Of a stretch of 47,996 bases of DNA, positions 388 to 41,726 are shown one piece after another (the stretch's first letter is position 1; every line of letters begins with the position of its first letter). Source of the stretch: Malassezia furfur (Eukaryota); the NCBI GenBank assembly GCA_052055015.1, contig JBQJIT010000033.1. One strand, given 5' to 3'. A program made the position numbers and the translations under genes. Under the pieces are notes generated by a model. The model did not search any database. It was not told where the DNA came from and was given only the letters and a program-made list of their open reading frames with translations.

Positions 388-1383
388 ATGCCGGCTGGCC
401 AGCTGGTCGCGCCGTCGCAGACCGAAGAGGTCTTTGTGCTCGAGGCGCTGCAGAGCGCCGCGCTCCGCACGGACGGGCGCAAGTTTGCCCAGGCGCGCCC
501 CGTGAACATTGCCTTTGGCGAGCAGCTTGGATGGTGTGAAGTGTCGCTGGGGAAGACAGTGTAAGTACACGTGCACTGACGTAGTGTCGTCGCGTCTGTC
601 GATGCACTCGTCGTGCCCCCGCGCGAGGAGCGCCCGTACGAGGGCATGATCAATATCAATACCGATATCACTCCTATGGCCGGCATGGAGTACGACGCGG
701 GCGGCGTCGCTGGCGCAACCGAATCGCGCGAACGCGAGGCGCTCTTTGACCGCATGATGGAGCGTGCGCTGCGGTACACCGAGGCCATCGACCGCGAGGC
801 ACTCTGCATCATCGCAGGGAAAAAGGTGTGGTGCATCAACTTGACCATTCACCTGTTGTCGGACGAAGGCGCGGCGCTAGACGCTGCGGTGCTAGCGAGC
901 TTGGTTGCCCTGCGGCACTTCCGCCGGCCAGACGTAACTATCGCCGACGGCGAGGTGATTGTGCACTCGCCCGATGAACGTGTGCCCGTGCCGCTCGCAT
1001 GTCATCATCTTCCACTGTGTGTGTCGTACGCCGTCTTTTTGTTGCGGCCCAAGAACGACGAGGAACGCAGCCTGCTCCTTGCGCAGTCCCGCACCGTTGC
1101 GCGCGACGACAGCATGGATGAAGACGTCGCGCAGACAGAAGTGGCCGCTGCGTTGCTCGACCCATCCCTGCTTGAGCAGACTCTGGCGCACACGAGCATC
1201 ACGTTTGTCATCAACGCACAGCGCGAAGTGTGCGTGCTAGACAAGGCCGGCGGCGCGCCGCTGCCGTACCAGACCATTCTCGCTCTTCTGGGTGATGCCG
1301 CAAAACGTGCGGCCGAGATGGCCGCGCTCCTGGAACGTGCCCTGGCCGACGACGCGCGTCACCGGGTAGTGTCTGTAGAGTAA
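388..1383 (+). CDS. RRP45: Exosome RNase PH-like subunit Rrp45
   Basis: Exon 388-560 (LRTDGRK..R.VNI.FG..GWCEVSLGKT), then a 24-nt intron 561-584 (GTAAGT..CTGAC.TAG) joining the 613-1383 frame: RPYEG, IDREALCIIAGKKVW, ALRHFRRPDV, DKAGG. Confidence 0.9.
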
Positions 1384-1410
1384 TGCGCACGAGATACCCA
1401 CAACCTCCAC

Positions 1411-2712
1411 ATGGACGGTGCGCCGCTCGCCGCGGAGCCAGAAGGGCAATGGACGGTGCAGACGGCGCCGCTGCCCGTCGAGGACCCGGTCGTGGATGTA
1501 CGGCGCATGAATGTGCCATCGTTTGGTCCGCGGCCGAGCTACTTGCAGTCGAGCCAGGCTCAACACTGGACATTTAGTGCCGATCAGCTCGCCCAAATGC
1601 GCACGAAGGCCAACCGTCAGGCCGCAGATGCTTTGGCACAGTACGCGAGTGACGCCAAGGTAGGTACATGTCTGACACAGGAATCTGTTCCAGCGCTACT
1701 GAGCGTCGCAGATGAGCTTGCGATCATCCGCTTTTACCTGCTCCGCATCGGGCGTCTCGTGCGGGCATTCCATTTGCCGTCGCTCATCGAATCCACGGCA
1801 ATGACCCTCATGAAGCGCTTCTACCTGCGCAATTCATGCATGCAGTTTCACCCCAAACTAATCATGTATGTGGCATGCTTACCCAGGCTCACGAGCATCT
1901 ACCTCGCGTCCAAGGCGGAAAACTATCCCTTGCCCCTCGCCAAATTTTGTGCCCAGGTCAACGAGGCGAGTGCCGGGAAACAGGCGCCCGCACCCACCAA
2001 GCCCTCGCCTGCACGCGGCGACGTGACAGAAAACATCATTCGCGACCTCGAATTCGGTATGGTGCAGAGCCTGGATTTCGAACTGGCCGTACATGGAGCG
2101 CAGCGTGCGCTCTATGGCCTGATCCTCGACTTCCAGACACTACAAAACCCGCTCTCACGAGAGGACCTGACGGCGTTTGCGGCAGCAGTGCAGGGATACG
2201 TACAGGGTGCACGCCTCACCGATGCCGAATTCATCTATGCGCCTCCGCACATTGCGCTAGCTGCGTGCTGGATGTGTGAAGCCAAAGGGACGTCGGGCAC
2301 CATCTCGGGCAAAGACATCGTCCAGAAATGGCTCGCGGCCAAACGCGAGCGTGCATCCACGGCACGCGCCGCACAGCTCGAGACTCGAATGAGTTGGCGC
2401 GCCAAGAAGCACGCCGTAGAAAAGGCCCAGCAGGACGCGTCGTCCAAGCAAGCGCCGTCGCCCGTGGCGTCCGAGTCGCCTGCACCGGTGGACTACAGCG
2501 CAGAGTCTATCAAGGAATCCGGCGGGCTTCTGCCCACCGCAGAGCTTGAGCAAATCCTGGATGCGATCGCCGCGCAAATCCGCGGCCTGGCTCCGAACAC
2601 CCCTGCGGGTGCGCCGCTCAAGCCCCAGGTGGATATGGAGCAGGTGAAGAAGATCGACCTTGCTCTGCGTGCGTGCCTCACGCTCTTTGAATCCGGCAAC
2701 CAGTCCAGCTAA
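1411..2712 (+). CDS. CCL1: Cyclin H (TFIIH kinase/CAK cyclin)
   Basis: [12 protein letters not shown] and [14 protein letters not shown]. Removing the 21-nt introns 1660-1680 and 1866-1886 restores [15 protein letters not shown]. Start may be 1411 or 1509; the C-terminus may extend to 2796. Confidence 0.85.
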
Positions 2713-2812
2713 CGGAAACGCAGTGCGCAGGACGACAATGGGAGCGCCAAACGACAGCGCACGGACGCCCCAGTGGATAGTGACGACGATTTATAGCTTC
2801 TCCACATCTGGC

Positions 2813-4884
2813 ATGTCCGCGTCGAGCGAGACGCGCAACGACGCGCGCCGTCCGATCGAACGACTCGATGCTGACGTCGTGAACCGCATAGCTGCTGGCG
2901 AGATCATTCATCGACCGTCCAATGCACTCAAGGAGCTGCTCGAGAACAGCCTCGATGCTGACGCAACGCAGATCAAAATTACGTTGCAGGACGGCGGGCT
3001 GAAGCTGCTACAGATTCAGGACAATGGTAAGGGCATCCCAGTACAGGACATGCCGCTCCTATGTGAGCGCTTTGCTACGTCGAAACTGCGCACATTTGCG
3101 GACCTCGAGTCCATGACGACGTTTGGCTTCCGTGGAGAAGCGCTGGCGAGCATCAGCTTTGTGTCTGCATCGGTCACCGCGGTGAGCAAGACGCGAGACG
3201 AGGATGTAGCCTACCAGTAAGTGCCGCAACTAATGCAGAGCGTCATATTTTGCTGGCACACTGCAGCCCCCCGCCGAGGGCCAGGAAGCCAGGCCAAAGC
3301 CGTGTGCAGGAACCAATGGGACGACCATCACCGTGCGGGATCTCTTCTTCAACGCACCACAGCGGCGAAACGTGTTCAAGTCACCATCTGAGGAGTATAA
3401 TCGTGCACTTGACGTCGCGACCAAATACGCTATTCATTATGGGCATCGTGGGGTCGGCATCTCCGTCAAAAAAGCCGGCTCGTCCTCGTTCGACCTAAAC
3501 ACTCCAGGTCAACCGGGGCAATCGACGCTCGATGTGATACGGAACGTGCATGGTGCGACACTCGCGCGCGACCTTATGCACCTTACACCTCTGCACATGG
3601 AGTCGCTTGGTTGTACCGTCGAAGGTTGGGTGAGCAATGGGAATTGGGCGTCCAAAAAGACCACCTTCCTTTGCTTCATCAATAACCGGCTGGTGGAAAG
3701 CGCATCCCTTCGTCGGTCGCTTGATACCATGTATGCAACACTGCTTCCCAAGGGCCGACACCCGTGGATTTACTTGTCGTTGACCATTGTGCCCAACCGC
3801 ATCGATGTCAACGTACATCCGACGAAACAAGAGGTCCATTTCCTCGACGAGGACGAGATTGTGGAACGCATCACCACACATACCCAGGACATTGTGTCTC
3901 AGCACAGTTCGTGCCGTGTCTTCTCTTCGGGGTCTCCTATGGGGGTCGCTACCTCAGAAAATACCGTCCAGGGTACGTGTTGCCGCTTACCCAGTTCTCG
4001 GCCCGCGGCAAAAGGGCTCGGACCCCCGGCATCTGGTCCGTGTTGACCACCAGGCACAGTCTCTGGATGCGATGATGGCTTCTGAGACAACCTCGGCGCA
4101 TCGCGGCTTGCAAGAACGCATTGCAGAGAGCCCGTGTGAACTAACAAGCGTCCAGGAGCTACGGACGGCTGTGTATCTCACGCGGAGCGTTCCGCTGTCG
4201 GAAGTGATTCAAAACCACAAATTTGTGGGCGTCGTTGATGCACAGCAGGGTCAATCACTGATCCAGCATGGCACACAGCTCTATCTCGTGGACCATGCCG
4301 CGGTCATTGAGGCGTTTGCGTACCAGCTTGCCTTGCGCCAATTCGCGTCCTTTACACCAATCCGCCTGGACCCCGCTCCCTCGCTCCGTGACCTAATCGG
4401 CGTTGGATTTGATGCCGAGGACGATCCGGTCAAGGCGGGACTGGATCGAGATACAGTCGTTCAAAAGATCTACGACACACTCATCGCACGCGCCGAGATG
4501 CTTGAGGAGTACTTCGCGATCCGACTCAATGCAGAAGAGGGCACGGTCGAGACGCTACCCGCCCTGCTTCCTCGTCACGGCACCATGGGTCTCGTGCTTG
4601 AGCGCCTGCCCTCGCTCTTTTTCCGCCTTGGGCCGCAGGTGGATTGGAGTCACGAAAAGGCGTGCCTGGATGGCCTCTGCCGCGAATTGGCCTATGCGCA
4701 CGTACCTTTCTCGGTGGGGCACACGGGTGCGGAGCAGGACGACGCGTGGACCATCCAGCATGTCTGGTTTGCGAGTTTCCTTGGATCCCGCGGCAAAATG
4801 ATGGTGTCCAAGGCACTCGCTGCACAGGCCTTCGTGCAGGTTGCAAGCCTCCCCGATCTGTACCGCGTCTTTGAACGATGTTAG
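2813..4884 (+). CDS. MLH1: DNA mismatch repair protein MutL homologue Mlh1
   Basis: [40 protein letters not shown] and C-terminal FERC. 22-nt introns 3217-3238 and 3973-3994 join three ORF frames. Confidence 0.95.
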
Positions 4885-4902: not shown

Positions 4903-5524
4903 TTATTTTGTAGCGGAGCCTACGTCAAACACGCTGAGCAGCGCAAAGCATGCGTAGAACAGGCCAACAGGATAGGCGACCAAGAACCGCTGGTTGTGCA
5001 TCCCCAGGATCGACACAAAGATGCCGGACGCTGCGGTGCAACACCACAGGATGAACAGTGGCGAGATAATGTACCCGAATGTGCTGTTCAGACGGACAAA
5101 CACGTTCAGGCAGCTCAGCAGGCATAGAGGCAGCAAGCAGTAGCCCAGGACGCTCGTCACGCGCGACGCGTCGATGCCGCCCTCGGACATGAGGTTCAAG
5201 AGGAAGTAGATGGAGACCACGCCCATGAGCCCCACACCGTACACGTAACCAAACTGCGACTTGCCCGCCTGTGTAAGTGACTTAGCGGCGTACCAGCAGA
5301 AGCAGCATGCCAAACACAAAGCAGAATAGCAAGGGGCCGGCGAGGTCCGTGTCGTCCATCATGTGCGCATCCTTCGGATGGTCCGGCGAGAACTTGTGGA
5401 ACGGGTTGAGCACCGCGAGCGACTTGTCCCAAACATGCGACAAGTTAATGTCGAGCTCCTCCATCAGTGAGGGCTCGCCGGGGAGGCCTCCCGTGCCAAA
5501 CGCGCTCAGCCAGTCCATGCTCAT
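4903..5524 (-). CDS. YIP1: Yip1 family ER-Golgi membrane protein
   Basis: [43 protein letters not shown]. 25-nt intron 5269-5293. Confidence 0.92.
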
Positions 5525-6457: not shown

Positions 6458-7480
6458 CTACATGAATCCATTCACACTGAGCTCCATCGCAATCCGCAGC
6501 TGCTCCTCTTCCGGGAGCGACTCAAAGTTGTCGGGCAGACCCTCAAGGGTGCCTGGCTCACTTTCCTGCAGAGCGTCGCTGGCCGCCGGCTCGGCAGGTG
6601 TATCGGCGACCTCGACGGGGTCGTCGGCGTCGCGCGGCGTCGGGTCGTCGACCGCGCGTGATGGTCCAGCGTCGCGCAGCGCAGCAGTGCCTGTCGGTTT
6701 GCGGTATACGCGGTCCGTGCGGAACGCTTGCCGGAACGCTTTGGTGAGGTTGTCCACCTTGACCTCGCCCATACCCGGCAGCATGGCCAATTTTTCGGGC
6801 GGCGCACGAGCCATGTCCGCGAGCGACTGGGTGAGGGGGAGACCACGTACCCCGATGTGCGTCGATAAGGTCATGACATCCGTCTTGTTGATCCCACGCA
6901 CGCTCGTCAGCACGGCGGCGAGCTGACTCGAGTAGGTTTCGCCGACGCGCGTGCGAATCAAATCAGGCGGGCGCTGTTCAAACGCCTTGTAGGTCTCGAG
7001 GTACCGTGCCGCCTCTTCTTGTCTGGGTCAGCGGAAGCCACATACGTCCATGCCACAAGCAGCACCATGCGATTGACCAGGGCAATTTTGGTCAGTTCCT
7101 TGATCGCCTGCTGGTGATCCGTCTTGGGTCAGTCTGGACACGTACCACATCGCACAGCACGAGGAGGACACGGAGGGTATACATGTGTGCAAGTTTCTGG
7201 ATCCGCATGTGAATGTACTCTGGGTGCAGTCGAAAGTAGCGCAAACTGGGTGAGCGGTGCGCCGCACCTACCTCAGGAAGAGAACGCCGCTCGAGAGACC
7301 CACCTGGTAATCCGGCACGATGTCGGCATATTCCCAGGCGACGCCCTTGATGTGCTGCAGGATTGGATTACCCCTCTGGCAACTATTCACCAGGATCGAG
7401 TTGGAGGAGGCCTGCGCGCCGCGGATCAGCGGATGCGGCCGTGCGCGCTGCGGGCTCGCGTCTTCGCGTGCCTGGGCCAT
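6458..7480 (-). CDS. RAD10: ERCC1/Rad10/Swi10 excision repair endonuclease subunit
   Basis: ILVNSCQRGNPIL, VPDYQVG..FLSLRYFRLHPEYI, EEAARYLETYK and HhH motifs. Introns 7246-7271, 7123-7145, 7023-7045 and 6827-6850. Confidence 0.92.
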
Positions 7481-7614: not shown

Positions 7615-9777
7615 ATGCCTGGAACACTCGCTCTGGCCGCCGCTGTGCTGGTCGGTGTGCTCACGCTGTACTTCCTCAGCGGGGTGCTGTTTGGTGGTGG
7701 CGAGTTGAAGCCGGTGGAGGAGGAGGTGCGCGACGACGCCAACTTTGTGGAGCGGATGGCGAGCCAGGTGCGTCGCGCGTGACTCACTCAGAAAAAACGG
7801 CTAGTCGTCTTCTTTGGTTCGCAGACGGGTACGGCAGAGGAGTATGCTATCCGCCTGGCGCGTGAAGCCAAGGAGCGCTACGGTGTCGGTGTGCTGGTGC
7901 TCGACATCCAGGACGAGGAGATGGACAAGCTCGACCAGCTGCCGGAAGATTCGGTTGCGATCTTCGTCATGGCGACGTACGGCGAGGGCGAGCCGACGGA
8001 CAATGCGGTGGAGTTCATGGAGTTCCTGCGGTCGCCGGACGTGGCGTTCAGTGAAAACTCGACGCTGAACAACGTGCACTACGTCGCGCTCGGTCTAGGC
8101 AACAAGACGTACGAGATGTACAACGAGACCATCAAGCAGCTCGACGAGCGCATGCGCGAGCTCGGTGCGCAGCGCATCGGCGAGGTTGGTATGTGCGACG
8201 ACGATGCGAGCATCGAGGAGGACTACCTCGCGTGGAAGGACCCCATGTTCGAGCAGCTCGCCAGCTACCTCAACCTCGAGGAGGGCAACACGGGCGACAT
8301 GTCCGACTTTACCGTCACCGAGGTTACCGAGGTCGCGGACGTGTCGCGCATTTACCAGGGCGAACACCACCCTCGTGCGCTCAGCGGCGTCAAGGGCAAC
8401 CACGACGCACGCAACCCGTATCCTGCTAGCGTTGTGCGCACGCACGAGCTGTTCACCGAGGGCGTTGCGAGCCGCTCGTGTGTGCACATGGAGTTCGACA
8501 TCCAGGGCTCCGGCATCACCTACCAGCACGGCGACCACCTGGCCGTGTGGCCGGTGAACCCTGAGCCGCAGGTCGAGCGCATGCTTGCGGTGCTGGGTCT
8601 GCAGGACAAGCGCAACACGGTGGTGAACATCAAGTCGCTCGACCCTGCGCTGGCCAAGGTGCCGTTCCCGCAGCCGACGACGTACGAGGCCATCTTCCGA
8701 TACTACCTGGACATCAACGCGCATGCCAGTCGGCAGGCGCTCGCGAGCTTTGTGCCGTTTGCGCCCAACGTCGCGGCGCGTGAGAAGCTCGAGCGCCTGA
8801 GCAAGGACCGTGACTTTTTCCTGACGCACGTGGGTGACTACGGCTACAAGCTCGGCGAGGTTCTCCAGATGGTCGCGGGCGACTCGACGCGCGACGAGGA
8901 CATCTCGTCGTCCACCGTGTGGCCCATTCCGTTCGACCGCGTGATTACATGTGTGTCGCGCCTGACGCCGCGCTTCTACTCGATCTCCTCGAGCCCGAAG
9001 CTGTCGCCTGACCGCATCCACGTCACGGCGGTCGTGCTGCGCTACACGCCGGCCCAGGGCAGTAAAGATGTGTACGGTCTTGCGAGCAACTTTATCAGCT
9101 CGGTCAAGATGGCGCAGAACAGCGAGACGCCCGGTCTCGAGGACCCGCGGCACGGCACGCCGCAGTACCACCTGCGCGGCCCGCGCGACGCGTACATCGA
9201 CGAGGCCGCCGGCCAGTACCGTGTGCCGATCCACGTGCGTCGCTCGACCTTCCGGCTGCCGACGAGCACCAAGATCCCGATCATCATGGTCGGCCCCGGC
9301 ACGGGTGTGTCGCCTTTCCGTTCGTTTGTACAGGAGCGCGTCGCGAACGCGCTCAAGGCGAAGGAGAAGCTCGGCGCGGACGCGCTGCAGGACTGGGCGG
9401 ACATTACGCTTTACTACGGATGCCGCCGGAGCAACGAGGACTTCCTGTACAAGGACGAGTGGCCCGAGTACGCTGAGAAGCTCGACAACAAGTTCAACCT
9501 GCGTGTTTCGCTGAGCCGTGAGGTGTTCAACCCTGACGGCTCGAAGAAGTACGTGCAGGACCTCATCTGGGAGGACCGCGAGAAGCTCGCGCACCAGATT
9601 CTCCAGCAGCGCGCGCATGTGTACATCTGTGGCGAGGGCAAGGGCATGGCGCAGGACGTGGAGCAAACCCTGGCCAAGATCCTGGGCGAGGCCAAGGGCG
9701 GCGGCATTGACGTCGGTCTCGCGGAGATCAAGGTGCTCAAGGACCGGCACCGTCTGGCGCTGGATGTCTGGTCATAG
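7615..9777 (+). CDS. NCP1: NADPH-cytochrome P450 reductase
   Basis: N-terminal TM anchor; 24-nt intron 7768-7791; FFGSQTGTAE, ATYGEGEPTDNA, RFYSISSS, GPGTGVSPF and C-terminal DVWS. Confidence 0.96.
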
Positions 9778-10589
9778 CTATGTAGTCGAATCCGGTGGTG
9801 GGAGCATTGCGCCGTGGTTGGCGAGTCTGCGTCAGTGGGTGCTTGCGTACCGGTCGGCCATCTCGTTGCCGTGCGTGCCAGCGTGCGCGCGCACGTACAC
9901 GAGCGACGGGCGCGGCGTGCGCGTAGTGAGGGCGTCGTCCAGCGCGACAATCAAATCCTTGTTCTGCACATCGCCGCCCGTACTGGTGCGCCATCCATTC
10001 CGCTTCCACGAAGGAATCCATTTTGTGACGGCATTCATCGCGTACTGACTGTCGGTAAAAATACGCAGCGGCTTGCTCGGCTCGGGGCATGTCTCGATCG
10101 CCCGCAGGATCGCCGTCAGCTCGGCGCGGTTGTTGGTCTGTACGGGGCCCGCCAGGCGACATGCAAGGTTCAGGTGGTGATAGCGATCATCGCTCCAGTA
10201 CACTCCGTAGCCTGCAACCGCACCATTGCGCCCATTGCCGCGCGACGAGCCGTCCGTGTACACCGTGAGGCCGCCGGGTGTTGCGTCAGGCAGAATGCGC
10301 ACGGCCTTGGCGGGTGTGATCGGCTCGGCGTCGTCCTCGGCCTTGCGCTTGGGCGCTGCAAGCGTCCGCGCAGGTGCCGATGCAGGTGTGGTGCGCGGCG
10401 CGTCCTCCTCCGCGACAAACGCGTCCGCCTCGACGCGCGTGGGGAACGACTTGTATCGGCTGCCCTGGTACCGCTCAACCTGTGCCTTGCACTGTTCCCT
10501 AGGTGAGACGCGCAGACATACCACGTCTCGTACACGCCTGGCTTGTGTCCGACGCGCACCGCGTAAAACTTGGTCTGACGCCGGACCAT
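9778..10589 (-). CDS. RNH1: Ribonuclease H1
   Basis: Hybrid-binding domain KFYAVRVGHKPGVYETW; VYTDGSSRGNG, QTNNRAEL, TDSQY, HAGTHGNEMADRLA. Introns 10499-10521 and 9827-9850. Confidence 0.93.
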
Positions 10590-16614: not shown

Positions 16615-16785
16615 ATATCAGTAGCCGCGATAGCTCGCTCGATTTCTTAGCGATTCACTTGTTGCGAACATGCGTGATTGCACTGCACAATGTGCCGCAT
16701 TGTGCCATTCATAGCACCCAGCATCGTGCGTGTTTGGCACCCGACGCGTCCGACGCCGCAGCGATCGAGGCCTCCACCTGCCAGC

Positions 16786-23919: not shown

Positions 23920-24035
23920 GGGTGGAGGAGAGGTGGAGGTACGCTTGACCGCGCATTAATTGCAGCAGATTGGACACGACCCCACGTGTAGCAAAGTTTG
24001 TCCATCCCACCCTGTACAGGAACCGCGTCGCTTGA

Positions 24036-29205: not shown

Positions 29206-29215
29206 TAAATACATA

Positions 29216-30659
29216 TTATATGGGACTCTGATTCGGGCGCGCGTGGATGAGCGGCACCATCGTCCATGGACGTGGTTCGTTCACAGACGGCTCAGCTGAG
29301 CCAAGCGCGGCTCGGTAGCATGCATCGCAGCAGTACGTCACAATTTGCGCCATGCCATCCAGACGCACTTGCTGGCCATTTTGGCTCTTGACCGCGTCGC
29401 CGCCCAGCACAGCCATCGTTGCGTCCCGCATGCCGCCGCACACTTCGCACGGAATGTCCTGCTCGCCGCGGACCACGAGTTTCCGAGGGGCGTAATACTG
29501 CCGCGCAAGCGACGCCAGCATCCAGCGCCGCAAAAAAGTGGTCTGGGGATATGCATCGAGTGCTGCACGAGGAGGTAAACGTCTGGGTCAGTACGCCACG
29601 TACCGAGCCCAATCAATTGTCCAAAGGTGCTCACAGTCTCCCCCGTGGAGCAACCAGTAGGGTTGGGCAAACGCCGTTGGTGGCAACGCATCCAGCCGCG
29701 TCGTAAGCGAACCGCCATACATGGTACAGGAAGGAAGCCCTGCATCAGGTGTGCTGAGCAGCGCTCTGACATAGCTGTCGTCGGATTCGGGGTCGAGACG
29801 GGCATACAGCTGATTCTCAATGAGGACAGCGACGTCAGTCTCTAATCTGCGGCCGGTGTAGCGTGGGTATACAGTACCGTGTCCTGCATCATGAGCACCC
29901 GTCCAGTGCCCCGCAATACCGGGTGCGTCCGTTTGCATAGCCTCGCGCCAGTGCTCGCGTTCAGGGATCTCGGCGTTTCGGCACATCATTTCGTCGACCA
30001 AATCGGCCAGTGTATGCCGGGTGGTAATGTGTATGCGCTGAGAGAGAACAACCTCGCCATCCATCTCGTCCGTCGTCGGAGTATCAAAGACACCATTCGG
30101 TGTGCCTGTGCTGCTGCCCAAACCGCGAGTTTTGCGGGTGAGGGCTACGGCACGACGAGCATATACCGAAACCTGCAAGAGAGCAGGCATGCCATCCGTA
30201 GGCACGGGCCGCACCGGCTGGGACATTTGCTGAGGCTACATTAGCAAAGGCCGTACCTTGCTCTCCATGGCATCCTGGTCCTGTATAGGGAGGATGCGCG
30301 CATACAGAGGGAGGTGGTCATACCTTGGTCAGCTGCCCCACGCACTTGTCCAAACGAAATGCCGGCGGTGCCATCTCGGCAAGGATCTTGCGCTGTTCCG
30401 TGCTTTCCTCGGGTACTTGCATGGATGTGCTTGATGCATATTCCATCCAAGTGGCGGCGACGGTGGGCACCAAGTCTGAATGCGGTGCTTCACACTGTGC
30501 CACTGCTGCCTCGCAGCGCTGCTGTACAAGGTGCATAGCATGACCGTCCAGCTCCACCGTATATATGGGCTGTGTGTGCTCTAATGTAAGCCGCTGCTCG
30601 GCCTCTACGAGCGAGGCCGGCTCCGTTGGGACACCGAGCTCAACCTGCGCCGTGCTCAT
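29216..30659 (-). CDS. SNAPC3: snRNA-activating protein complex subunit 3 (SNAP50)-like zinc-finger protein
   Basis: Introns 30324-30345, 30236-30256 and 29583-29603 join four exons. PYWLLHGGDCEHLW + YP + CEVC...CCDACY match the SNAP50 C-terminal zinc-finger pattern (Y.H.GDCEH..C..C..C..C). Confidence 0.75.
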
Positions 30660-30871: not shown

Positions 30872-31179
30872 TTACAGGTGCACGCCAACAGCGTTGAACA
30901 AAGCAACGACGCCCGTACCCGCAAACAGACTCGCGCCGATCGCGAGCAGGACCTTTGGTAGAGACCGCTTGCCGCGTGGGAAACTGGGTAAGCGTTTCAC
31001 ATACGTCGAGAAGAAAAACGCCAGCGCAAAGGACAGCACGAGCGAAACCAGCGCTATGGCGCGCATGGCATGCACCGGAATCATTAGCCGCGCATCTGGC
31101 AGTGTGCGAAACTCGTCCTGGGGTCAGCTCCTTTCTAGCGTGCCTGCACTGCTTTGTACGCCGCGTAGTCCACCGTCAT
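30872..31179 (-). CDS. OST5: Oligosaccharyltransferase small subunit Ost5/TMEM258
   Basis: Small 2-TM protein ending ASLFAGTGVVALFNAVGVHL. GC-AG intron 31118-31143 and 21-nt intron 30984-31004. Confidence 0.78.
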
Positions 31180-31297: not shown

Positions 31298-32813
31298 ATG
31301 AAAGTAGTCGCGGCGGTGGTCAACCGCGGGTTCCGCCGTGTGGAACGCGCGGCCGAGGGCGTAATCGGTCGTGCCGGCCCTCTGTTTGTTGCCATTTACC
31401 TGGGCCTGGTTGGCACAGGCGTTTGGTTGTTCTGTACGTGGCACGTCTGACACAGTCGCGTGTGTTTTTCCGACACTCGTCTCACTTCCTGCGCCACTGC
31501 GGCGCCTGTTTTCGATTGGAAACCCGGGACATATTCTGCTCGGCCTACCTATGGCAGTACATGACAGCTGCAGGCAGGAACCGCGTGCGATGTTCCGTTG
31601 TGTTTGGCTCACTGTGGGCTGTTTCTACCTGGCAACCATGATGGGCTGGTCGTACTACATGGCTTGCACTGAGCCGCCTGGGTCGCCATCGCACGGCATG
31701 TCGGAGAAGCTCCACGAGCGCCGCATAGGGCCTGGGAGTGCTATGTGGTGGCAACAAAAGTGCGAAAGCATCACCCGTGCGACATTTGGACTGCCCTGCA
31801 GAGATGAGGATGAGCGACACGCAAACGACTCGATCCCCTATGCACACTCGACGTGCCATCGTCTGACTCCGCGCAAGGCTGTGCCGGGGCCCAAGAATAC
31901 CTACCAGCCCAACGCCGACCTCTCCACTTCCTACCGCTACTGCAAAAAATGCCCGCGGGTGCCGCTCGCAGAGGCCATTGCGCGGCTCCCGCCGGAGCTG
32001 CGCAAGGTGGAGAAGTGGAACCGTCGTGACCATCTACTCCGCGTAAAGCAAAAAGCAGCCGAGGATGGCGCTGCTTCGGCGCAGGATGTCGCAGAGCTAT
32101 CCTCCAGCCTGCCTCCCGAGCTGTTTATCGACAATGACGAAGAGAGTCTGAGCGATATTTCCCAATGGCTTGGTGAGGATGCACAAAAGATTGTTCTCCC
32201 GCCCAAACCTGAGCGTGCACATCACTGCAAGACGTGCAGGATGTGTGTGTTCAAGTTCGACCACCACTGCCCCTGGATCAACCAGTGCGTCGGGCTGGGC
32301 AACGAGCGCTACTTTGTCTTGTTCATGCTCTGGTTCTCGCTAGGCACGTGCGTATTTGGCGTGACAGCCTGGGAAATTGTGAACGAGGCACTGTGGCACT
32401 ACAAGTGGCCCTACCGCTATGCACCACGCGTCCTGTTCATTGCGATGTATGCCAAGGCAGTCGTGATGGGTGGGGCCGTATTTATACTGGCACTGTGGCA
32501 CCTCTACCTCGTCTCGAAAGGCGAGACGAGTGTCGAGAGCCAGGACAATGCACACTATCGGAAAATGGCCAAGGAGCGGAACGACCGCTTCGTGAACGTG
32601 TACGATATGGGCCGCCTACGGAACCTCCAAATCTTTTTTAATGTCGGACGCGGCCTGAAATATGGCTATTATACCCTCCTTCTTCCATGCCGAATCGAGC
32701 CCTACTCGGACGGCTGGCGTTATGCCAAGAGCCCGGGCCTACTTGGACGCCACATGGGCATCAAGCAAGAGGAAGAGTTTACCGACGACGACGGCGAGCC
32801 ATTGGAAGGATAA
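31298..32813 (+). CDS. DHHC palmitoyltransferase
   Basis: [53 protein letters not shown]. 22-nt intron 31434-31455. Confidence 0.93.
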
Positions 32814-32948: not shown

Positions 32949-34541
32949 TTAAGATTTTTTTGTCGGACGACTTGTCGTCACGAATGTGAATGCCTTTCTC
33001 GTAGTCGTACGCATCAGAGTCCTTAATGTATTCGCTGGGATCCCGAACACGGTGTGATGCTTCGATGTCCTGGCCCTCGATCCGCGCAAGCACTTCTTCT
33101 GCTTTTGTCTCCTCTGGTCGTCGATCTTAAGTTCATCACCTCGATGTTCAAGGCCAAATATTATCAGGACGGTGAGGTACCCCACCACACATGCCAGTAA
33201 GATGGCACTGACGGTAGCATAGTCAGCAATTGTCTCGCCAGGGTGTTTGGGATCTGCCATACGAATACTTTCGCCCCCACGTGTCTCAATCGTCGACGAC
33301 GCAGAGCTGGCCATGTTACCCAGCTGATACGTAAAACCAGAAAACGTTGCACGGAAAGCCGCAGGCGAAATCTCGCTCAGGTACACTGGAATCACGCCCC
33401 AGGCGCCTTGGACGCCAAATTGGACAAGGAAACCACCTGCAGCCAGCCCACCAAACGAGTTCGGTACAATCCAAACAGGGATCATGCATCCAGCAAAAAT
33501 AATAAACGTGAGCATAGCGAGACGGCGGCCAATATATTGAGAGAGGTATCCGGCAACCATACCACCAGTGATAGCACCACAGTTTGCAATAATTGTCGCG
33601 ATCGACGACTGGTTAGACGTAAGCAGCTTGGCTTTCTGCAGCATCGTTGGGTACAAGTCTTGCGACGAGTGGCTGAGGAAGTTGAAGAACGTCATCAGAA
33701 AGATGGAATAAATGAACATCTTCCAATGCTCTTGAAGCATGCCCCCCGTGTCCTTGAAAAACTGCTTAGCGGGATTTTTATTCACTGACTGCAATTTTCG
33801 CAAGCGCTGTTGTTCAATAAACTTGGGGCTCTCCGGAAGTACCGCACGCAGGATACAAGCAGCAAACGACAGGCCTGCACCAAGGTAGAAAAGCACCTCC
33901 CACTCGCCTTCGCCATTCCGAGCCTGGTTGGCCCAGCCCAAGTTGACCGCTGCCGCAATCAGATATCCAATGACACATCCTTGCTGGAGGATACCTGAAA
34001 AGAGACCTAGTGCGGCTGTCGGCATGTTCTCCAAAGCAGTTGCAGTCGACATACCCCAGATACCACCCATGGCAATGCCAAAGATAGATCGGACGGCGAG
34101 GAATTTGCTGTAAGTATTGGCATAAGCGGTTCCCAACGAAAGAACTGCCACGAATAGCATGTCAGCAGTAAGGACCCAGCGTCGACCGAGACGATCCGCA
34201 ACCAATCCAAAAACAACGGCACCAAGCGAGCGGAAAAGAAGAGTAAGCATGATTGAGTAATTCAAATCCTTGATTTTTGCGTCTTTCTCTGCTTGCGTTT
34301 GGGGGTCGAAAAAATAAACAACGAGTTTGGGAACACTCATAGTTACAGCAAAAAAGTCGTATGAATCCATAGTCCAGCAAAGTAGACCACACAGGAACCA
34401 TACCCACTGCATGAGATTGAGCATGGCAAAAATCTTGATCGGGTTCAAGGGAGCACCCGCACGAAGATGCTCGCGTTCTTTCTTGTCTGGCAATCGGAAT
34501 AGACCATGAGTGGGATCCTGCGTAAAGAAATTGGACAGCAT
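32949..34541 (-). CDS. JEN1: Jen1-family carboxylate:H+ symporter, copy A (frameshifted C-tail)
   Basis: DSYDFF, ADRLGRRW and the TM7 motif NFLSHSSQDLYPT; its ATG aligns with that of copy B. Confidence 0.88.
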   Translation of the reverse strand: MLSNFFTQDPTHGLFRLPDKKEREHLRAGAPLNPIKIFAMLNLMQWVWFLCGLLCWTMDSYDFFAVTMSVPKLVVYFFDPQTQAEKDAKIKDLNYSIMLTLLFRSLGAVVFGLVADRLGRRWVLTADMLFVAVLSLGTAYANTYSKFLAVRSIFGIAMGGIWGMSTATALENMPTAALGLFSGILQQGCVIGYLIAAAVNLGWANQARNGEGEWEVLFYLGAGLSFAACILRAVLPESPKFIEQQRLRKLQSVNKNPAKQFFKDTGGMLQEHWKMFIYSIFLMTFFNFLSHSSQDLYPTMLQKAKLLTSNQSSIATIIANCGAITGGMVAGYLSQYIGRRLAMLTFIIFAGCMIPVWIVPNSFGGLAAGGFLVQFGVQGAWGVIPVYLSEISPAAFRATFSGFTYQLGNMASSASSTIETRGGESIRMADPKHPGETIADYATVSAILLACVVGYLTVLIIFGLEHRGDELKIDDQRRQKQKKCLRGSRARTSKHHTVFGIPANTLRTLMRTTTRKAFTFVTTSRPTKKS

Positions 34542-34684
34542 CCTCTTGCGAATGCCAAACGGAGGAATGCCACTAAGGGAATGACATACGTGAGGAGCCA
34601 ACCCCCTTTTAAAGTTCCTTAGTTGACTCAGCCAGAGCCGATGCTAGCTTAATGGGGTCCCTGATTGATGCCACTTCACAGAGC

Positions 34685-35815: not shown

Positions 35816-37417
35816 TCACATGGGGTTTTTCTTGTCGTCTGACTTGTCATCACTCAGATGGATGCCTTTTTCATACTCGTACGCGTCGGGATCCTTGATG
35901 TAAGCGTCGGAGTCCCGCACCTGGTGTGCCGCTTCAATGTCCTGGCCCTCGACACGAGCCAGAACCTCCTCGGCATTCGTGCCTTCGACGTGATCGTCAA
36001 TCTTGAGCTCATCACCACGGCGCTCCACGCCAAATACAATCAGAACGGTGAGGTACCCCACAACACACGCAAGCAAGATAGCACTGACGGTAGCATAGTC
36101 AGCAATCGTCTCGCCTGGGTGCTTGGGGTCTGCCATGCGGATGTTTTCACCCCCGCGCGTCTCAATCGTCGATGACGCAGAGCTGGCCATGTTACCCAGC
36201 TGGTACGCAAGACCAGGGAATGTGGCACGGAAAGCCGCAGGCGAAATCTCGCTCAGGTACACTGGAATCACGCCCCAGGCACCTTGCACACCGACCTGGA
36301 TAAAGAAGCCGCCCGCGGCGAGGCCACCGAACGAGTTGGGCAGAATCCAGGCGGGGATCATGCACCCAGCAAAAATAATAAACGTGAGCATAGCGAGACG
36401 GCGGCCAATATATTGAGAGAGGTATCCGGCAACCATACCACCAGTGATAGCACCACAGTTTGCAATAATTGTCGCGATCGACGACTGGTTAGACGTAAGC
36501 AGCTTGGCTTTCTGCAGCATCGTTGGGTACAAGTCTTGCGACGAATGGCTGAGGAAGTTGAAGCCCGTCATCAGAAGGATGGCATAGATGCACATCTTCC
36601 AGTGCTCCTGAAGCATGCCACCGGTGTCCTTGAAAAACTGCCTGACAGGATTCTTCGTCGCCGGCTGCAGCTTCCGCAGGCGCTTTTGCTCAATAAACTT
36701 GGGGCTCTCGGGAAGTACTGCACGAACAATACCGGCAGCAAGCGAGAGGCCTGCACCAAGGTAGAAAAGCACCTCCCACTCGCCTTCGCCATTCCGAGCC
36801 TGGTTAGCCCAGCCCAAATTCACCGCTGCCGCAATCAGGTATCCCATGGCATAACCTTGCTGGAGGATACCCGAAAAGAGACCACGCGCAGCCGTCGGCA
36901 TATTCTCCAGAGCAGTGGCCGTAGACATACCCCAGATACCGCCCATTCCAATACCGAAAATGGAACGAACGGCAAGGAACTTGCCATAGGTGTCTGCATA
37001 GGCAGTACCTAGGGAAAGGGCCGCCACAATTAGCATGTTGATGGAGAGCACCCAGCGACGACCAAAACGGTCGGCAATCAGTCCGAAAAGAACGGCGCCG
37101 AGCGAGCGGAAGAGAAGGGTAAGCATGATCGAGTAATTGACTTGCTTCGTCTTCGCATCCTTCTCCGCCTCCGTTTGTGGATCAAAAAAGAACACCACTA
37201 GCTTGGAAACGCTCATCGACACCGCGAAAAAGTCGTACGAGTCCATGATCCAGCAGAACAGACCGCACAAAAACCACGCCCACTGAATACCATTGAGCAT
37301 GGCAAAAATTTTAAGCGGGTTCATAGGAGCACCCGCCCGCAGGCGTTGACGCTCCTGCTTGTCTGGCACTTGAAAGAGACCATGGGTGGGGTCGTTTGCA
37401 AAAAGCTTAGACACCAT
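35816..37417 (-). CDS. JEN1: Jen1-family carboxylate:H+ symporter, copy B (intact)
   Basis: ADRFGRRW, ARGLFSGILQQGY, NFLSHSSQDLYPT, FRATFPGLAYQLGN and an acidic tail. Confidence 0.92.
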   Translation of the reverse strand: MVSKLFANDPTHGLFQVPDKQERQRLRAGAPMNPLKIFAMLNGIQWAWFLCGLFCWIMDSYDFFAVSMSVSKLVVFFFDPQTEAEKDAKTKQVNYSIMLTLLFRSLGAVLFGLIADRFGRRWVLSINMLIVAALSLGTAYADTYGKFLAVRSIFGIGMGGIWGMSTATALENMPTAARGLFSGILQQGYAMGYLIAAAVNLGWANQARNGEGEWEVLFYLGAGLSLAAGIVRAVLPESPKFIEQKRLRKLQPATKNPVRQFFKDTGGMLQEHWKMCIYAILLMTGFNFLSHSSQDLYPTMLQKAKLLTSNQSSIATIIANCGAITGGMVAGYLSQYIGRRLAMLTFIIFAGCMIPAWILPNSFGGLAAGGFFIQVGVQGAWGVIPVYLSEISPAAFRATFPGLAYQLGNMASSASSTIETRGGENIRMADPKHPGETIADYATVSAILLACVVGYLTVLIVFGVERRGDELKIDDHVEGTNAEEVLARVEGQDIEAAHQVRDSDAYIKDPDAYEYEKGIHLSDDKSDDKKNPM

Positions 37418-38200
37418 CCTACAGTGGGAACCAGGCAGAAGTGTGGTGTGTGGGAGGGACAAACACGCGGGCTTGTCGGTTTTTAAGTTCTCTTCACGTC
37501 TTCGGCCATAGCCGATACTAGTCCAATGGGGAGCCTCCTGGCGCTAAAATCACAGCACCCCCCGCACTGAATTGCCGCAGGCATGCCAAATCCATGCGCT
37601 GCCTGATCCAGAGAGTGTGGGGTTTTTTTCTAGCTGGCTCGTATGTGTCACTCAACTTTTAAAATACAGCGAATCACAATTGGTTACGAGTGAAAAAATG
37701 GAAAAAATGCTCAGCTTTGGACGTGCGAAGTCGAAATAATTTTAGTCAATATGTGATCGGCTCGGTGAGGGGTTTCAACTGGGCCCCACAGTGGGGGAGA
37801 TATTCAAGACGTTGGGTGGGCTTATCATGGCCAGGTGACACCTTGCTCACAATTCCATTGGTCTGATCCGACAGGGTTACGAGGAACGGGAGAGTAGATA
37901 CGCCATCCTCGTATACGCGTGCCTGTTAAGGCCTACAGGAGAGAACGAACGTGTTCACCTAGGGCCTTCCAATTTTGATAATCGGCGTCTGCCATGCAGC
38001 CATTTTGCGTAACACCGTAGTCTTGGGATCTCTGAACCAGTTAGATCTGCGCCCTTTCCTATCTGCTTGGAAATCCCTGGTGGCTTCAGATAGATCTGGA
38101 ACTACGTGCTGTAGGATCACATTCGATCTCTTTCGATGGCGTATAGCCGCAGCCGCCCGTTGACCGCCTCCACTGCAACCTCCACACGGCGTCCGCCCTC

Positions 38201-38867
38201 ATGTCCTCAACACGGCCGTCATGGGATTACATTTTAAAGTTTATCATCATTGGTGATGCGTCCGTCGGCAAGTCATCGCTCCTGGTCCGTTTGACCGAGG
38301 ATCGGTTCTTGGTAGATTCTGATGCGACGATTGGGATCGAGTTTGGCTCGCATATCATTTCACTCGAGTCCGGTGAGCGGTTAAAACTTCAGGTGTGGGA
38401 CACGGCGGGAAGCGAGCAGTTCCGCAGCGTATGTATCCGTACACGCTTACACAGATTACACGCTCGTATTACAAAGGTGCAGCTGGGTGCCTGCTGGTGT
38501 ATGACGTGACCGCGCGCGACACCTTTGCTCATCTGCCCTCCTGGCTACACGATGTGCGCGAACAGGCCGAAGAAAACGCAACCATTGCACTTGTGGGCAA
38601 CATGGCCGATCGCCCAACAGATCAGCGCGCTGTATCCAAGGAGGAGGCCGAGACGTTTGCGGCAGAGAACAAGTATGTGACGTCCATTCATGCAGCCTCT
38701 TGTTTTTCGAGACAAGCGCCAAGACGGGTGAGAATGTCGTCGAAGTGTTCACGGCCGTGGCAAGTGCAATCCTCGCGCGCTACAAAGCCAACCCGCCCGA
38801 GGAGCAACCATCTTCCACAACAGTAGACCCGCGTGCGCGTCCTGCACAGGGCGGATGTTGCTCGTGA
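38201..38867 (+). CDS. Rab GTPase (Rab2-like) with atypical switch II
   Basis: GDASVGKS, TIGIEFG, WDTAGSE, ITRSYYKGAAG, GNMAD, ETSAK and C-terminal GGCCS. Introns 38429-38454 and 38673-38695. Confidence 0.9.
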
Positions 38868-38904
38868 TCTATGTGTACAGTAGGTAGACACTACCTTTTT
38901 CGGC

Positions 38905-39663
38905 TCACGCGGCAGCGGCTGCCGGCGCCTGTGACTCTGACGGTGCTGGCGCCACACGCCAGTCGCCACCGCTTGCGCCCTGCCGCCAGTCACGCGGCGC
39001 CGGAGGCGGCAGCGGCAAGTGTTGCCGTGCAGCTTCGGCCTCCTGCATCGCGAGGCGCTCCTTCCAGCCAAGACGCAAGAAGGCCTCGCGTGCAAATTGT
39101 TCGCGCCGGCGCTCACGGCTCTCGACCTGGAGCTCGTGGTGCAGCTCGCGCGCCAGTTCTGGGGATGGGTGGCGCAGGTGCATAAAGTTGCACAACCCGC
39201 CGCGGTTGCACTCGTTCGTCTCGTTCTGCCGGCAGCACGCCTCACGGAAGTCGGTGACGGGTGAGAGCTCTGCAAAGAGCGGCTTGCCGTTGAACCAGCG
39301 CATGTTGAGTTCGTCAACGGCATGCTGAGCATCGTCTTCGGTCTTGAAGCGTGCATAGACATTACCGATAAGGTGGTCGCCGACGTTGTCGCAGACGTGC
39401 ATCTCGACAAGGTCGCCGAGTTTCCCGAGCTCGACAAACATGTCCTGGTAGAAGTCGTCGAACTGTGCCTGGAGTTCGGCGTCGGTGAGGGTACAGTTCG
39501 GGTTCAGGTGACGTGGGTTCTGGTACACGTTCGAGAGGAGGATCGTGCGTGAGGATGTCGGTTCAACGTGCCGCCGCGAGCACCGCTCGCCATGCCGGCA
39601 CGCGCCGATCTTGAAATAGAACGAGCAGTTGACTTTGTCCTGCTCCGAACCAAAGTTGCTCAT
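38905..39663 (-). CDS. U2AF1: U2 auxiliary factor small subunit (U2AF35/U2AF23)
   Basis: DKVNCSFYFKIGACRHGERCSR, UHM (VCDNVGDHLIGNVY) and ELSPVTDFREACCRQ..CNRGGLCNFMH. Confidence 0.95.
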   Translation of the reverse strand: MSNFGSEQDKVNCSFYFKIGACRHGERCSRRHVEPTSSRTILLSNVYQNPRHLNPNCTLTDAELQAQFDDFYQDMFVELGKLGDLVEMHVCDNVGDHLIGNVYARFKTEDDAQHAVDELNMRWFNGKPLFAELSPVTDFREACCRQNETNECNRGGLCNFMHLRHPSPELARELHHELQVESRERRREQFAREAFLRLGWKERLAMQEAEAARQHLPLPPPAPRDWRQGASGGDWRVAPAPSESQAPAAAAA

Positions 39664-39756
39664 CGTGGTGGCGCGCCAAGCGCCGACGCCGGCGGCCCTC
39701 CACATAAAACCACGTGGCACCCGCGCCGGCGACGCGACACGGTGCGGACGACGGCG

Positions 39757-41726
39757 ATGACGGTGAGCCATCGGAAGCCGCGGCCGACGCAGCCGAATCA
39801 GGACCGGACTGGTACGTGTAATCTGCTGAACATGCAGCTGCGGAGCCTGGCGTGCGCTACCACTGCGATGTGTGTGGTGCCGACATCACGCTAACCGTGC
39901 GCATTCGGTGCGCGGGTGGGTGCGAAGACTTTGACCTGTGCGGGACGTGCTTCTGTACGGGCGCCGAGGTCGGCAAGCACAAGGCATGGCATGACTACCG
40001 CGTGATTGAGCAGCACTCGCAGCCGATTTACTGCCCCGACTGGGGCGTCGACGAGGAGCTGCTGCTCATCGACGGGTGCCAGCTGTATGGCCTGGGCAAC
40101 TGGGCCGATATTGCGGACCATATCGGGAATCGGACCAAGGAGGAGGTCGAGCACCATTTCATCAGCGTGTACATCGAGGGCAAGAATGGCCTGCCGTCCG
40201 GCAACGCGCGTGCGGCCGAGGCGGTGACGGCCTGGCGCGAGGCGCACCCCGAGGCCGCCGATGCACCCGGGGAGGAGCCCCTGCCGATCGTGGGCCCCGA
40301 CCCCAACTTTGCCTACGATATTGCGCCGGAGGACTTTTTGCGCGAGCGACGCGAGCGCATTGAGCGGCTGCGCGAGACACAGGCCGCGTTTGTGCCGCCG
40401 AAGCCGAACGCCAAGCCGCTGGTGTCGGCGCCGACGACCCACAGCGAGCTCACCGGGTTCATGCCTGGGCGCCTCGAGTTTGAGCACGAGTTTGAGCAGG
40501 ACGCCGAGCACCTCGTGAAGGACATGGAGTTTGGGCGCGTGTATGCGTTTGGCGGTGATGCGATGCCGAACGAGTTTGACGCGCTTGGCGAGCAAGGCGC
40601 GACGCAGGGGCATGCGCGCATGGAGGCCAGCGGGCGCGGCGGCCCTGTGAACCAGCGCCCCAGCGAGGGGTCGGCGGACGAGAACGAGGACGAGTTTACC
40701 GATGCGCCCGAGGAGGCGGCGGCCGACGATGCTGCGTCGGCGGCGCCAGCGTCCAAAACGCACACCAAGGCCGAGGCCGAGGCACTGGGCACGGCGGCGG
40801 CGGATGAGGCCGAGACGGACGTGCCTGCAGATGCGGCGAATCCCAAGGCCGAGGGCGACACGGCCGGCGACAAGCCCGAGGGCGACAAGGATGCCGCCGA
40901 GACGACCGACGACCGTGCGCCCGACTGGGACGAGGACCCGCTGGACCTCGACCTGAAGCTGGCGGTGCTTGACATGTACAACGATGCACTGGACAAGCGT
41001 GGGCGCAAGAAGCGTTTCCTGTTTGAGCGCAACCTGGTCGACTACCGGCGGAACGTCGCCGCCGAGCGGCGGCGGCCGAAAGAGGAGCGCGACCTGCTGG
41101 CGCGCATCCGGCACTTTGCGACGCTGCAGACGGCGGCCGACTTTGAGGAACTGTACCATAATCTGTGCTACGAAGAGGCACTCAAAAAGACGGTGCACCA
41201 GCTGCAGCAGTACCGGCGCATGGGCCTCACGACCTTTGCCGAGGCCGCGCGCTACGACAAGGAGGCGGCCGAGCGCACCAAGCGGCAGCTCGAGGCCGCC
41301 GAGGGCACGCTGGCGCTCGGGGGTGCGCATGCGGGGCGTGTGCGGCACCGCGAGCGGAGTGTGTCGGCGCTGGACGACACCAAGGCGGACGATTTTTCGT
41401 TTGCGAATGCGCCCGGCATCCAGCTGCTGAGCGCGCAGGAGCAGCAGCTGTGCTCGCTGCTGCACATCCTGCCCGAGCCGTTCCTGGTGCTCAAGGCGGC
41501 GCTGCTCACGTACGCATACGCGCACCACAAGGCGCTCACGCTGACGCACTGCCAGGCGCTGTGCAACATTGCGCCGCGCAAGCTGAGCCGCGTGTACGAC
41601 TTTTTCGTGCAGCAGGGCTACGTGCACGCCGTGCTGGATGCGTGCGACTGGCGCAGCGAGCGCGCGGCGAAACGCGCGCGGCGCAGCGCCTCGTCCGGGA
41701 CGCCCGTATACCCCGCTGATACCTAG
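39757..41726 (+). CDS. ADA2: SAGA transcriptional adapter Ada2
   Basis: MTVSHRK exon + 26-nt intron 39812-39837; ZZ zinc finger, SANT (WGVDEELLL..GLGNWADIA), GFMPGRLEF and SWIRM. Confidence 0.95.

Follow-up and report, generated by a model that had tools for sequence, protein, structure and literature searches.

Ultra-short candidate spliceosomal introns with a 21-nt minimum in a 48-kb window of the Malassezia furfur genome

A 47,996-nucleotide (nt) stretch of the Malassezia furfur genome (NCBI GenBank assembly GCA_052055015.1, contig JBQJIT010000033.1; hereafter the window) contains 33 candidate introns, of which twelve are exactly 21 nt long and none is shorter. We interpret them as, very probably, ordinary U2-type GT-AG spliceosomal introns that have shrunk to the smallest size the spliceosome accepts. 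The window spans 48 kb of DNA with a GC content of ~61%, in which fungal housekeeping genes are tightly spaced on both strands. A reading of the sequence alone had proposed 35 introns here, with a fixed internal architecture and a floor at 21 nt. After gene models were built 33 of them were kept, among them the two 21-mers that had been offered as examples, which lie exactly where they had been placed, at 18058 and 24401. The lengths are 21 nt (twelve introns), 22 nt (three), 23 nt (six), 24 nt (five), 25 nt (two) and 26 nt (three), plus one intron each of 42 and 48 nt, both of which belong to ATP5. With ~27 genes over 40 kb, this amounts to ~1.2 introns per gene, with a median length of 23 nt and a mean of 24 nt.

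Gene models were made by removing the candidate introns and taking the longest open reading frame (ORF). This yielded full-length proteins for 16 genes, including those for RNase PH, MLH1, RAD10, NADPH-cytochrome P450 reductase (CPR), RNase H1, OSCP, PP2C, PI4K2, DHHC, Rab and ADA2. Because 23 of the 33 introns either cause a frameshift or contain a stop in frame, these must be removed, in keeping with the earlier proposal that most of the segments restore a reading frame or a conserved motif. In the RNase PH-domain gene (an exosome subunit), a 24-nt intron (561-584, + strand) contains internal in-frame stops, and once it is taken out a 58-codon exon 1 runs on into the RNase_PH ORF. MLH1 holds two 22-nt introns: the first (3217-3238, +) combines a frameshift with an in-frame stop and its excision joins the HATPase_c_3 and DNA_mis_repair ORFs, and the second (3973-3994, +) is a frameshift whose excision joins the DNA_mis_repair and Mlh1_C ORFs. 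In-frame stops also mark the 25-nt intron of a Yip1-domain gene (5269-5293, -), a 26-nt intron of RAD10/ERCC1 (7246-7271, -), 24-nt introns of CPR (7768-7791, +; TGA) and RNase H1 (9827-9850, -), and the 48- and 42-nt introns of ATP5/OSCP (15853-15900 and 15965-16006, both +). The frame likewise calls for removal of two 23-nt introns of RAD10/ERCC1 (7023-7045 and 7123-7145, both -; the latter with an AAG acceptor) and of a 23-nt frameshifting intron of RNase H1 (10499-10521, -).

At the 23-nt ATP5/OSCP intron (16230-16252, +), removal leaves 187 open codons downstream, as against 31 for a nested 19-nt alternative, and excision of the 23-nt intron at 21788-21810 (-) lengthens the PP2C phosphatase ORF from 235 to 286 residues and yields the sequence ...ACDGLWDV.... 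The 21-mers with in-frame stops include one in an unnamed gene of 389 residues (23512-23532, -; TAG), one in the type II PI 4-kinase gene (24401-24421, +; TAG and TGA), and one in an unnamed gene of 329-336 residues (29583-29603, -; TGA), where removal joins two ORFs. The 22-nt intron of a DHHC palmitoyltransferase gene (31434-31455, +) brings both a frameshift and an in-frame stop, and a 68-codon exon 1 is joined to the DHHC ORF when it is taken out. Both introns of a Rab-type small GTPase gene shift the frame; excision of the 26-mer (38429-38454, +) gives ...WDTAGSEQFRS-ITRSYY..., and excision of the 23-mer (38673-38695, +; branch TTCAT) completes a 205-residue ORF with a CC-type tail. A 26-nt intron in ADA2 (39812-39837, +), whose branch motif is unclear (CTGAA), is a frameshift as well, and its removal joins a 19-codon exon 1 to the ZZ/Myb/SWIRM ORF.

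The expectation by chance was estimated by scanning both strands for GT[AG]NG[TC] ... CTNA[CT] ... YAG at lengths of 12-60 nt and comparing the matches with those in 100 dinucleotide shuffles. A broader ORF-joining scan of all GT...AG pairs was replaced by such motif-anchored scans because it was too noisy in GC-rich DNA. Between 21 and 26 nt there were 29 matches against a shuffle mean of 4.43 and a shuffle maximum of 11, a 6.5-fold excess. By length, 12 matches were found at 21 nt (shuffle expectation 0.60), 3 at 22 nt (0.65), 4 at 23 nt (0.75), 5 at 24 nt (0.73), 2 at 25 nt (0.91) and 3 at 26 nt (0.79). The range of 12-20 nt gave only two matches, both of 19 nt and both resulting from alternative donors that lie 4 nt within 23-nt introns. 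Of the 39 copies of the fused 3' word CTNAYNYAG on the two strands, 27 follow a strict donor located 21-26 nt upstream. In a relaxed scoring scan over 15-34 nt, the top score was limited to the same elements, one 34-nt match and one nested 19-mer. Could the segments nevertheless be chance motif matches in GC-rich coding sequence and not introns at all? High GC does give long spurious ORFs on both strands, and three strict or near-motif matches that lie antisense to genes (16320-16340, -; 29749-29774, +; 33197-33217, +) are probably chance. However, the excess over shuffles, the 23 frame restorations and the homologue gaps and orthologous presence and absence described below refute a chance origin, to which we give practically no credence.

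The layout of the 33 introns is nearly fixed, as had been claimed, and the proposed donor GT(A/G)NG(T/C) is almost invariant. G1 and T2 are present in 33/33, A3 in 32/33 and G5 in 33/33; position 4 is C in 16, T in 12, G in 3 and A in 2, position 6 is T in 27, C in 5 and G in 1, and the exon base at -1 is G in 22/33. Toward the 3' end, C occupies -9 in 28 introns, T -8 in 28, A -6 in 29, C or T -5 in 31 and C or T -3 in 32, and all 33 end in AG. A [CT]TNA[CT] branch-site motif is found in 32/33. In 28/33 the predicted branch A is 5 nt away from the 3' end, and 2 nt separate the branch motif from the terminal AG; in four others the branch A is at a distance of 6, 7, 7 and 10 nt, and in one its position is unclear. 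Measured from the 5' end, twelve introns have the predicted branch A at position 16, four at 17, six at 18 and five at 19, with a tail beyond, and none has it before position 16. The twelve 21-mers show both spacing minima at once, and the placement of their predicted branch A at position 16, 5 nt from the 3' end, fits 12/12. All length variation between 21 and 26 nt lies in the donor-to-branch spacer of 6-11 nt. These spacers have no pyrimidine bias and no common sequence.

Lengths divisible by three occur in 19/33 introns (binomial P = 0.0036 for the excess), an excess that is due to the pile-up at 21 nt, and 10 of these 19, all of 21 or 24 nt, are stop-free. Seven of the ten show exact homologue gaps or orthologous absence or resizing. 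GWT1 contains three of them, all 21-mers on the + strand (17702-17722, 17875-17895 and 18058-18078), and an alignment with the 17 nearest database homologues has gaps of exactly 7 residues at the three sites in 11, 8 and 7 sequences, respectively. At the first site the PDB alignment also breaks at the junction; at the second, removal turns SRRM-VRRRLTQ-ANLPY into SRRM-ANLPY, opposite SRRF-ANLPY of yeast Gwt1; and at the third the gap is equally exact against yeast Gwt1 (8xij_A). In a cyclin H/Ccl1-like gene, the 21-mer at 1866-1886 (+) coincides with an exact 7-residue gap relative to human cyclin H (1kxu_A, 8orm_I), and the 24-nt intron of RAD10/ERCC1 at 6827-6850 (-) with an exact 8-residue gap relative to human ERCC1 (6sxa_G). 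The other two are the 21-mers at 23411-23431 (-), in the unnamed 389-residue gene, and at 24476-24496 (+), in the PI 4-kinase gene, directly 3' of which the PI4K2A alignment begins.

Three stop-free elements were recognized by their splice signals alone. One is a 21-mer in the cyclin H/Ccl1-like gene (1660-1680, +), with perfect signals in a region of weak homology where the cyclin H alignment has a gap of 5 residues. The second, a 24-nt intron-like element with perfect signals (22696-22719, -), is located either close to the 3' end of an unnamed gene or within the 5' leader of PP2C, and the third is a 21-nt element with perfect signals in a small membrane-protein ORF (30984-31004, -). Splice signals also define the 25-nt intron two codons 5' of the ATP5 stop (16579-16603, +), a weak case in which the OSCP domain match stops at the donor, and a 21-nt intron-like element with the donor GTACGG (30236-30256, -) at the 5' end of the unnamed gene of 329-336 residues, whose start codon is uncertain.

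Comparison with relatives made use of three syntenic loci from a metagenome scan with eIF3c (L001, L002 and L003), which have 73% identity in eIF3c and a GC content of 50-52%; L002 and L003 represent the same species, and the MLH1 sites lie outside the region that these loci cover. For each of 21 window introns, the 40 flanking residues were located in them by tblastn. An interpretable pair was obtained in at least one locus for 15 of the 21 sites, and at all 15 the intron is either precisely missing or replaced by a GT...AG insert that differs in length and sequence; there was no usable pair at 9827, 16579, 17702, 17875, 21788 and 22696. Coding sequence is contiguous in every paired locus at 7768 (L001, L003) and at 23411 and 23512 (L001-L003). 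It is also contiguous in L002/L003 at 6827, 7023 and 10499 (the last with low flank identity), and in L001 at 5269, 7246 and 18058. Where the window has 21 nt, at 24401, 24476 and 18058, L002/L003 have 24, 26 and 26 nt. The 23-nt introns at 7123, 16230 and 7023 correspond to 25 nt in L003 and 37 nt in L001, to 25 nt in L002/L003 and 56 nt in L001, and to ~77 nt in L001, respectively, and the 24-mer at 6827 to 37 nt in L001. In L003, the site at 5269 holds 24 nt and that at 7246 holds 25 nt.

Overall, an intron of different sequence and length is present at 9/15 comparable sites in L002/L003 and at 6/12 in L001. Because the relatives hold introns of other sequence and length at these positions, most of the positions are probably old. 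Sites that are precisely empty or resized in relatives are the classical comparative signature of introns. Strict-motif introns in L002/L003 measure 22-34 nt and have their branch A at a distance of 3-10 nt from the end, and the comparison places the window species at the short extreme among the Malassezia lineages compared. Some further features of these sites deserve mention. Intron presence varies much between Malassezia lineages, and the elements at 7768-7791, 23411-23431 and 23512-23532 are precisely absent from both related lineages. Acceptors in the relatives are not YAG at some orthologous sites (...AAAG, ...GAAG, ...GTGAG); the window has a single AAG, at 7123-7145. Introns one and two of ATP5 are long in each of the three lineages (48, 41 and 45 nt at 15853, and 42, ~105 and 40 nt at 15965, in the window, L001 and L002/L003, respectively), next to adjacent introns of minimal size.

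Public protein records give a further view of RAD10. The window model of 308 residues is gapless at 4/4 junctions against the M. brasiliensis and M. psittaci proteins, and matches M. furfur RAD10 at every residue present in that record. The junctions at 6827-6850 and 7246-7271 fit 4/4 public Malassezia RAD10 proteins; that at 7023-7045 fits the proteins of M. brasiliensis, M. psittaci and M. vespertilionis, and that at 7123-7145 those of M. brasiliensis and M. psittaci. Frames, homologues and orthologous sites together support the view that the segments behave as spliceosomal GT-AG introns, and we are almost certain that, as judged from these comparisons, they are real introns.

The stop-free segments raise the question of whether some of them are sometimes retained, or alternatively spliced, as coding insertions of 7-8 residues. 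Retention of the 10 that lack an in-frame stop, among the 19 multiples of three, would add 7-8 residues and would not trigger nonsense-mediated decay, and close relatives do keep such segments in frame: the three closest GWT1 sequences retain 7-residue inserts ending in ...LTQ or ...DPG, the translation of CTGACNCAG. One of these three (P0001) is the window's own unspliced ORF, and the other two are relatives with 83% and 95% identity. However, distant homologues have exact gaps at 1866, 6827, 17702, 17875 and 18058, and relatives carry 26 nt at 18058 and 24476 or nothing at all at 23411 and 6827. Because 26 is not a multiple of three, the 24476 site in the relative cannot be read through. The splice signals in these segments are moreover perfect, and they are conserved as ...LTQ in relatives. 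We therefore regard it as improbable that some of them are retained as coding insertions, and take the stop-free segments, like the others, to be introns.

The uniform size and ends of the introns would also be expected if they were copies of an intron-like mobile element (an introner) that had spread recently, as opposed to old introns that shrank independently. Gain is conceivable at 7768, 23411 and 23512, which are absent at all interpretable relative loci. Against such an origin, the 6-11-nt spacers share no sequence, so that only the splice signals match, and inspection of spacer columns 7-9 and -12 to -10 revealed no consensus. In addition, relatives hold an intron of other sequence and length at the majority of comparable sites in L002/L003 and at half of those in L001. 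Recent spread of a mobile element seems very improbable to us.

The claim that no intron is shorter than 21 nt holds within the window, with twelve introns at 21 nt and none below. Whether 21 nt is the hard minimum throughout the genome of this species is a separate matter, and here we lean, with some reserve, toward a positive answer. The competing view, that the introns are real and the floor is a small-sample impression hiding a genome-wide tail below 21 nt, as in some ciliates, draws on the fact that just 33 introns are at hand and on the 15-16-nt introns that Stentor splices, as cited in a recent survey (PMC13644364), so that 21 nt is not a universal physical limit. Set against this, the length mode coincides with the minimum, and the range of 12-20 nt is empty except for the two nested alternatives. 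These decoy donors would make 19-nt introns with the same branch site and acceptor; one (21788-21806, -) is top-scoring and the other (16234-16252, +) strict but lower-scoring, and at both sites only the 23-nt form keeps the frame, so the 19-nt form is not the productive one. In two closer relatives, too, each of the three GWT1 inserts is exactly 7 residues long. Three weak candidates below 21 nt in eIF3c, all that were examined there, turned out to be coding sequence conserved in nine relatives. On balance a hidden tail appears unlikely, if still a serious competitor, and a hard minimum at 21 nt is the reading we prefer.

How might such a floor arise? An intron of this kind consists of little beyond three signals: the donor GTA(C/T)G(T/C), the branch site CTNA(C/T) and the acceptor YAG. 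The floor is the sum of two minimum spacings, with the branch A 5 nt from the 3' end and at least at position 16 from the 5' end. With this 5' minimum of 16 nt, the donor hexamer and the branch motif are 6 nt apart, and the lariat loop would measure roughly 16 nt. Because the 2-nt gap leaves no room for a pyrimidine tract, the branch site and acceptor may be read as one unit; they would be recognized jointly, and the second step would use the first AG after the branch. The 5-6 unpaired nt between the donor, bound by U1 and then U6, and the U2 branch helix may be the shortest tether that permits docking, an idea drawn from general knowledge of spliceosome structure. The floor would then be steric. 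It is possible, although we would not yet call it probable, that a complete fungal spliceosome works at a sharp geometric limit in the M. furfur lineage, with the branch A no closer than 16 nt to the donor and exactly 5 nt away from the 3' end, tighter than in its sister lineages. In the sister Malassezia lineages compared, orthologous introns are 24-26 nt long and the branch-to-AG distance is 3-10 nt. If the limit is real, it would point to lineage-specific changes in 3' splice-site recognition, in which branch and AG are read jointly and independently of a pyrimidine tract.

Several points weigh against the reading of these segments as introns with a floor at 21 nt and should be set beside it. 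The evidence for the introns consists of frame, homology and comparison, from which splicing itself is deduced, and the branch points are predicted by motif only. For the elements at 1660, 16579, 22696, 30236 and 30984, it consists of signals alone or nearly so. Among the 19 multiple-of-three introns, the 10 stop-free ones could be retained invisibly as far as the frame is concerned; about half of the in-frame introns thus show no nonsense-mediated safety net. With 33 introns sampled in 48 kb, rare introns below 21 nt are possible genome-wide, and other eukaryotes do splice introns of 15-16 nt (PMC13644364). Two of the 35 introns proposed by the sequence-only reading, one 22-mer and one 26-mer, were not matched; their possible sources are 19329-19350/19354 (-) and the element at 29749-29774, which lies antisense to a gene.

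The warning that standard gene finders would miss such introns proved apt, and tiny in-frame introns have the practical effect of corrupting public protein models. For the window loci 6458-7480 (-) and 16690-18246 (+), RAD10 and GWT1 models in public records (P0241, P0244, P0004, P0011 and P0013) are faulty, with missing residues, read-through or fused neighbours. From the M. furfur RAD10 record 50 residues are missing around two of the 23-nt introns, and that of M. vespertilionis contains a 9-residue read-through (...VRPSEALTQ...) at an intron site. In the M. psittaci GWT1 record the third intron is read through into another frame, and GWT1 is fused to ATP11 or OSCP in three public records. 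A comparative study treated M. sympodialis as intron-poor (PMC8476143).

Several other elements resemble introns and were not included among the 33. A 42-nt segment at 4225-4266 (+), in frame and stop-free, has a strict donor and a perfect CTGATCCAG word. It lies inside an unbroken Mlh1_C domain match and looks coding, so that this decoy is presumably ignored by the cell. Signals further mark candidate elements at 19329-19350/19354 (-), at 21494-21527 (+; 34 nt), at 23939-23965 (+; perhaps an intron in the 5' leader of PI4K2) and at 5525/5529-5564 (+), upstream of the S8e ribosomal protein gene. These extra candidates fall in 3' ends, leaders or unassigned DNA.

Pfam matches in the window identify RNase PH, cyclin, MLH1, Yip1, ribosomal S8e, a helix-hairpin-helix protein (RAD10/ERCC1), NADPH-P450 reductase, RNase H1, DBF4, eIF3c, OSCP/ATP5, GWT1, ATP11, PP2C, type II PI 4-kinase, a PPR protein, MFS transporters, DHHC, ADA2, FGAM synthase and others. 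For eIF3c, identity amounts to 98% with an M. furfur protein, 84% with M. psittaci and 75% with M. vespertilionis; the last (C-terminal) RAD10 exon is 100% identical to 'RAD10 [Malassezia furfur]', and the nearest named GWT1 matches are from M. psittaci, M. yamatoensis and Malassezia sp. These identities fit M. furfur or a near relative as the source. A tandem pair of MFS/sugar-transporter paralogues that lack introns (32949-34643, -, and 35816-37543, -), 86% identical over 481 residues, sits within an island of lower GC (42-56%, versus 59-65% in the surroundings). The small ORF at 30890-31084 (-), interrupted by the 21-nt in-frame element at 30984, has ~64 codons and encodes a two-helix membrane protein, which may resemble the small oligosaccharyltransferase subunits. 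An Rfam scan of the window gave no family reaching the gathering score, and hence no small nuclear RNA within it.

Among known systems, the nucleomorph of Bigelowiella natans has introns of 18-21 nt, similar in absolute size to those described here, but it is a relict endosymbiont nucleus. Paramecium is reported to avoid stop-free introns whose length is a multiple of three. No such ciliate-type depletion is seen in the window, where multiples of three are in excess and about half of them lack a stop. Tiny introns are on record elsewhere, at ~25 base pairs (bp) in Paramecium, 15-16 bp in Stentor, 23-24 nt in Encephalitozoon and a median of 22 bp in myxozoan and dicyemid animals (PMC5014332, PMC13644364). 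The introns of ciliates, microsporidia and these animals are like those of the window in having a narrow distribution below 30 nt that is pressed against a lower limit, and in being reduced to splice signals. They belong to other lineages, however, whereas the host here is a culturable, transformable basidiomycete yeast. The 2026 survey of ultra-short introns names ciliates, microsporidia and dicyemids, and in the part accessible to us it does not name Malassezia (PMC13644364).

The proposal of fused branch-site and 3' splice-site recognition fits the layout, with 28/33 predicted branch points at 5 nt, but the design itself is not new. According to Irimia and Roy (2008; PMC2483917), the branch-to-AG gap is fixed at 2 nt in Yarrowia lipolytica and at 4 nt in Trichomonas and Giardia. 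Yarrowia is alike in combining a strong branch motif with a fixed 2-nt gap to AG, the spacing found in 28/33 window introns. It differs in that its introns are hundreds of nt long with only the 3' half compact, and in that its branch motif is ACTAAC, as against the looser CTNAY here. In Trichomonas vaginalis and Giardia lamblia, the branch site and acceptor also form one conserved word at a fixed distance, but the gap is 4 nt (ACAC) and the introns are very few and not size-minimised.

The closest comparison is with Malassezia itself, where short introns were already known, as the sequence-only reading had noted. M. sympodialis ATCC 42132 has 5350 introns with a mean of 30 bp, 99% of them supported by RNA sequencing (RNA-seq), according to Zhu et al. 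(2017; PMC5389616). The median intron of M. restricta is 30 bp, and its annotation required a minimum intron length of 15-20 (PMC9241646, PMC6473144). A review describes Malassezia genes as holding 'very short introns' (PMC7426719), and M. furfur gene models have made use of RNA-seq (10.1101/638429). These genomes belong to the same genus and are alike in their compactness and their ~1.2 introns per gene. Their papers give means or medians of 30 bp, whereas the window has a median of 23 nt and a mode of 21 nt (PMC5389616, PMC9241646). Our search, which left subscription journals outside its reach, found no literature that states for Malassezia a minimum, a 21-nt mode, a branch-A position or branch-to-AG spacing, or a missing pyrimidine tract. 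Short introns are thus already published as a trait of the genus, and some of the present junctions are already in public annotation; what is added here is the quantitative layout, a lineage tighter than its relatives and a tractable host. The limits of minimal introns have usually been studied in ciliates, nucleomorphs and microsporidia, none of which is an easy genetic system. M. furfur is described (10.1101/638429) as a culturable yeast that can be manipulated genetically with Agrobacterium and CRISPR. Because this host yeast is genetically tractable, the limit is directly testable by shortening the spacer base by base, and, if the limit is real, a culturable, transformable yeast would become the first tractable model for minimal-intron splicing.

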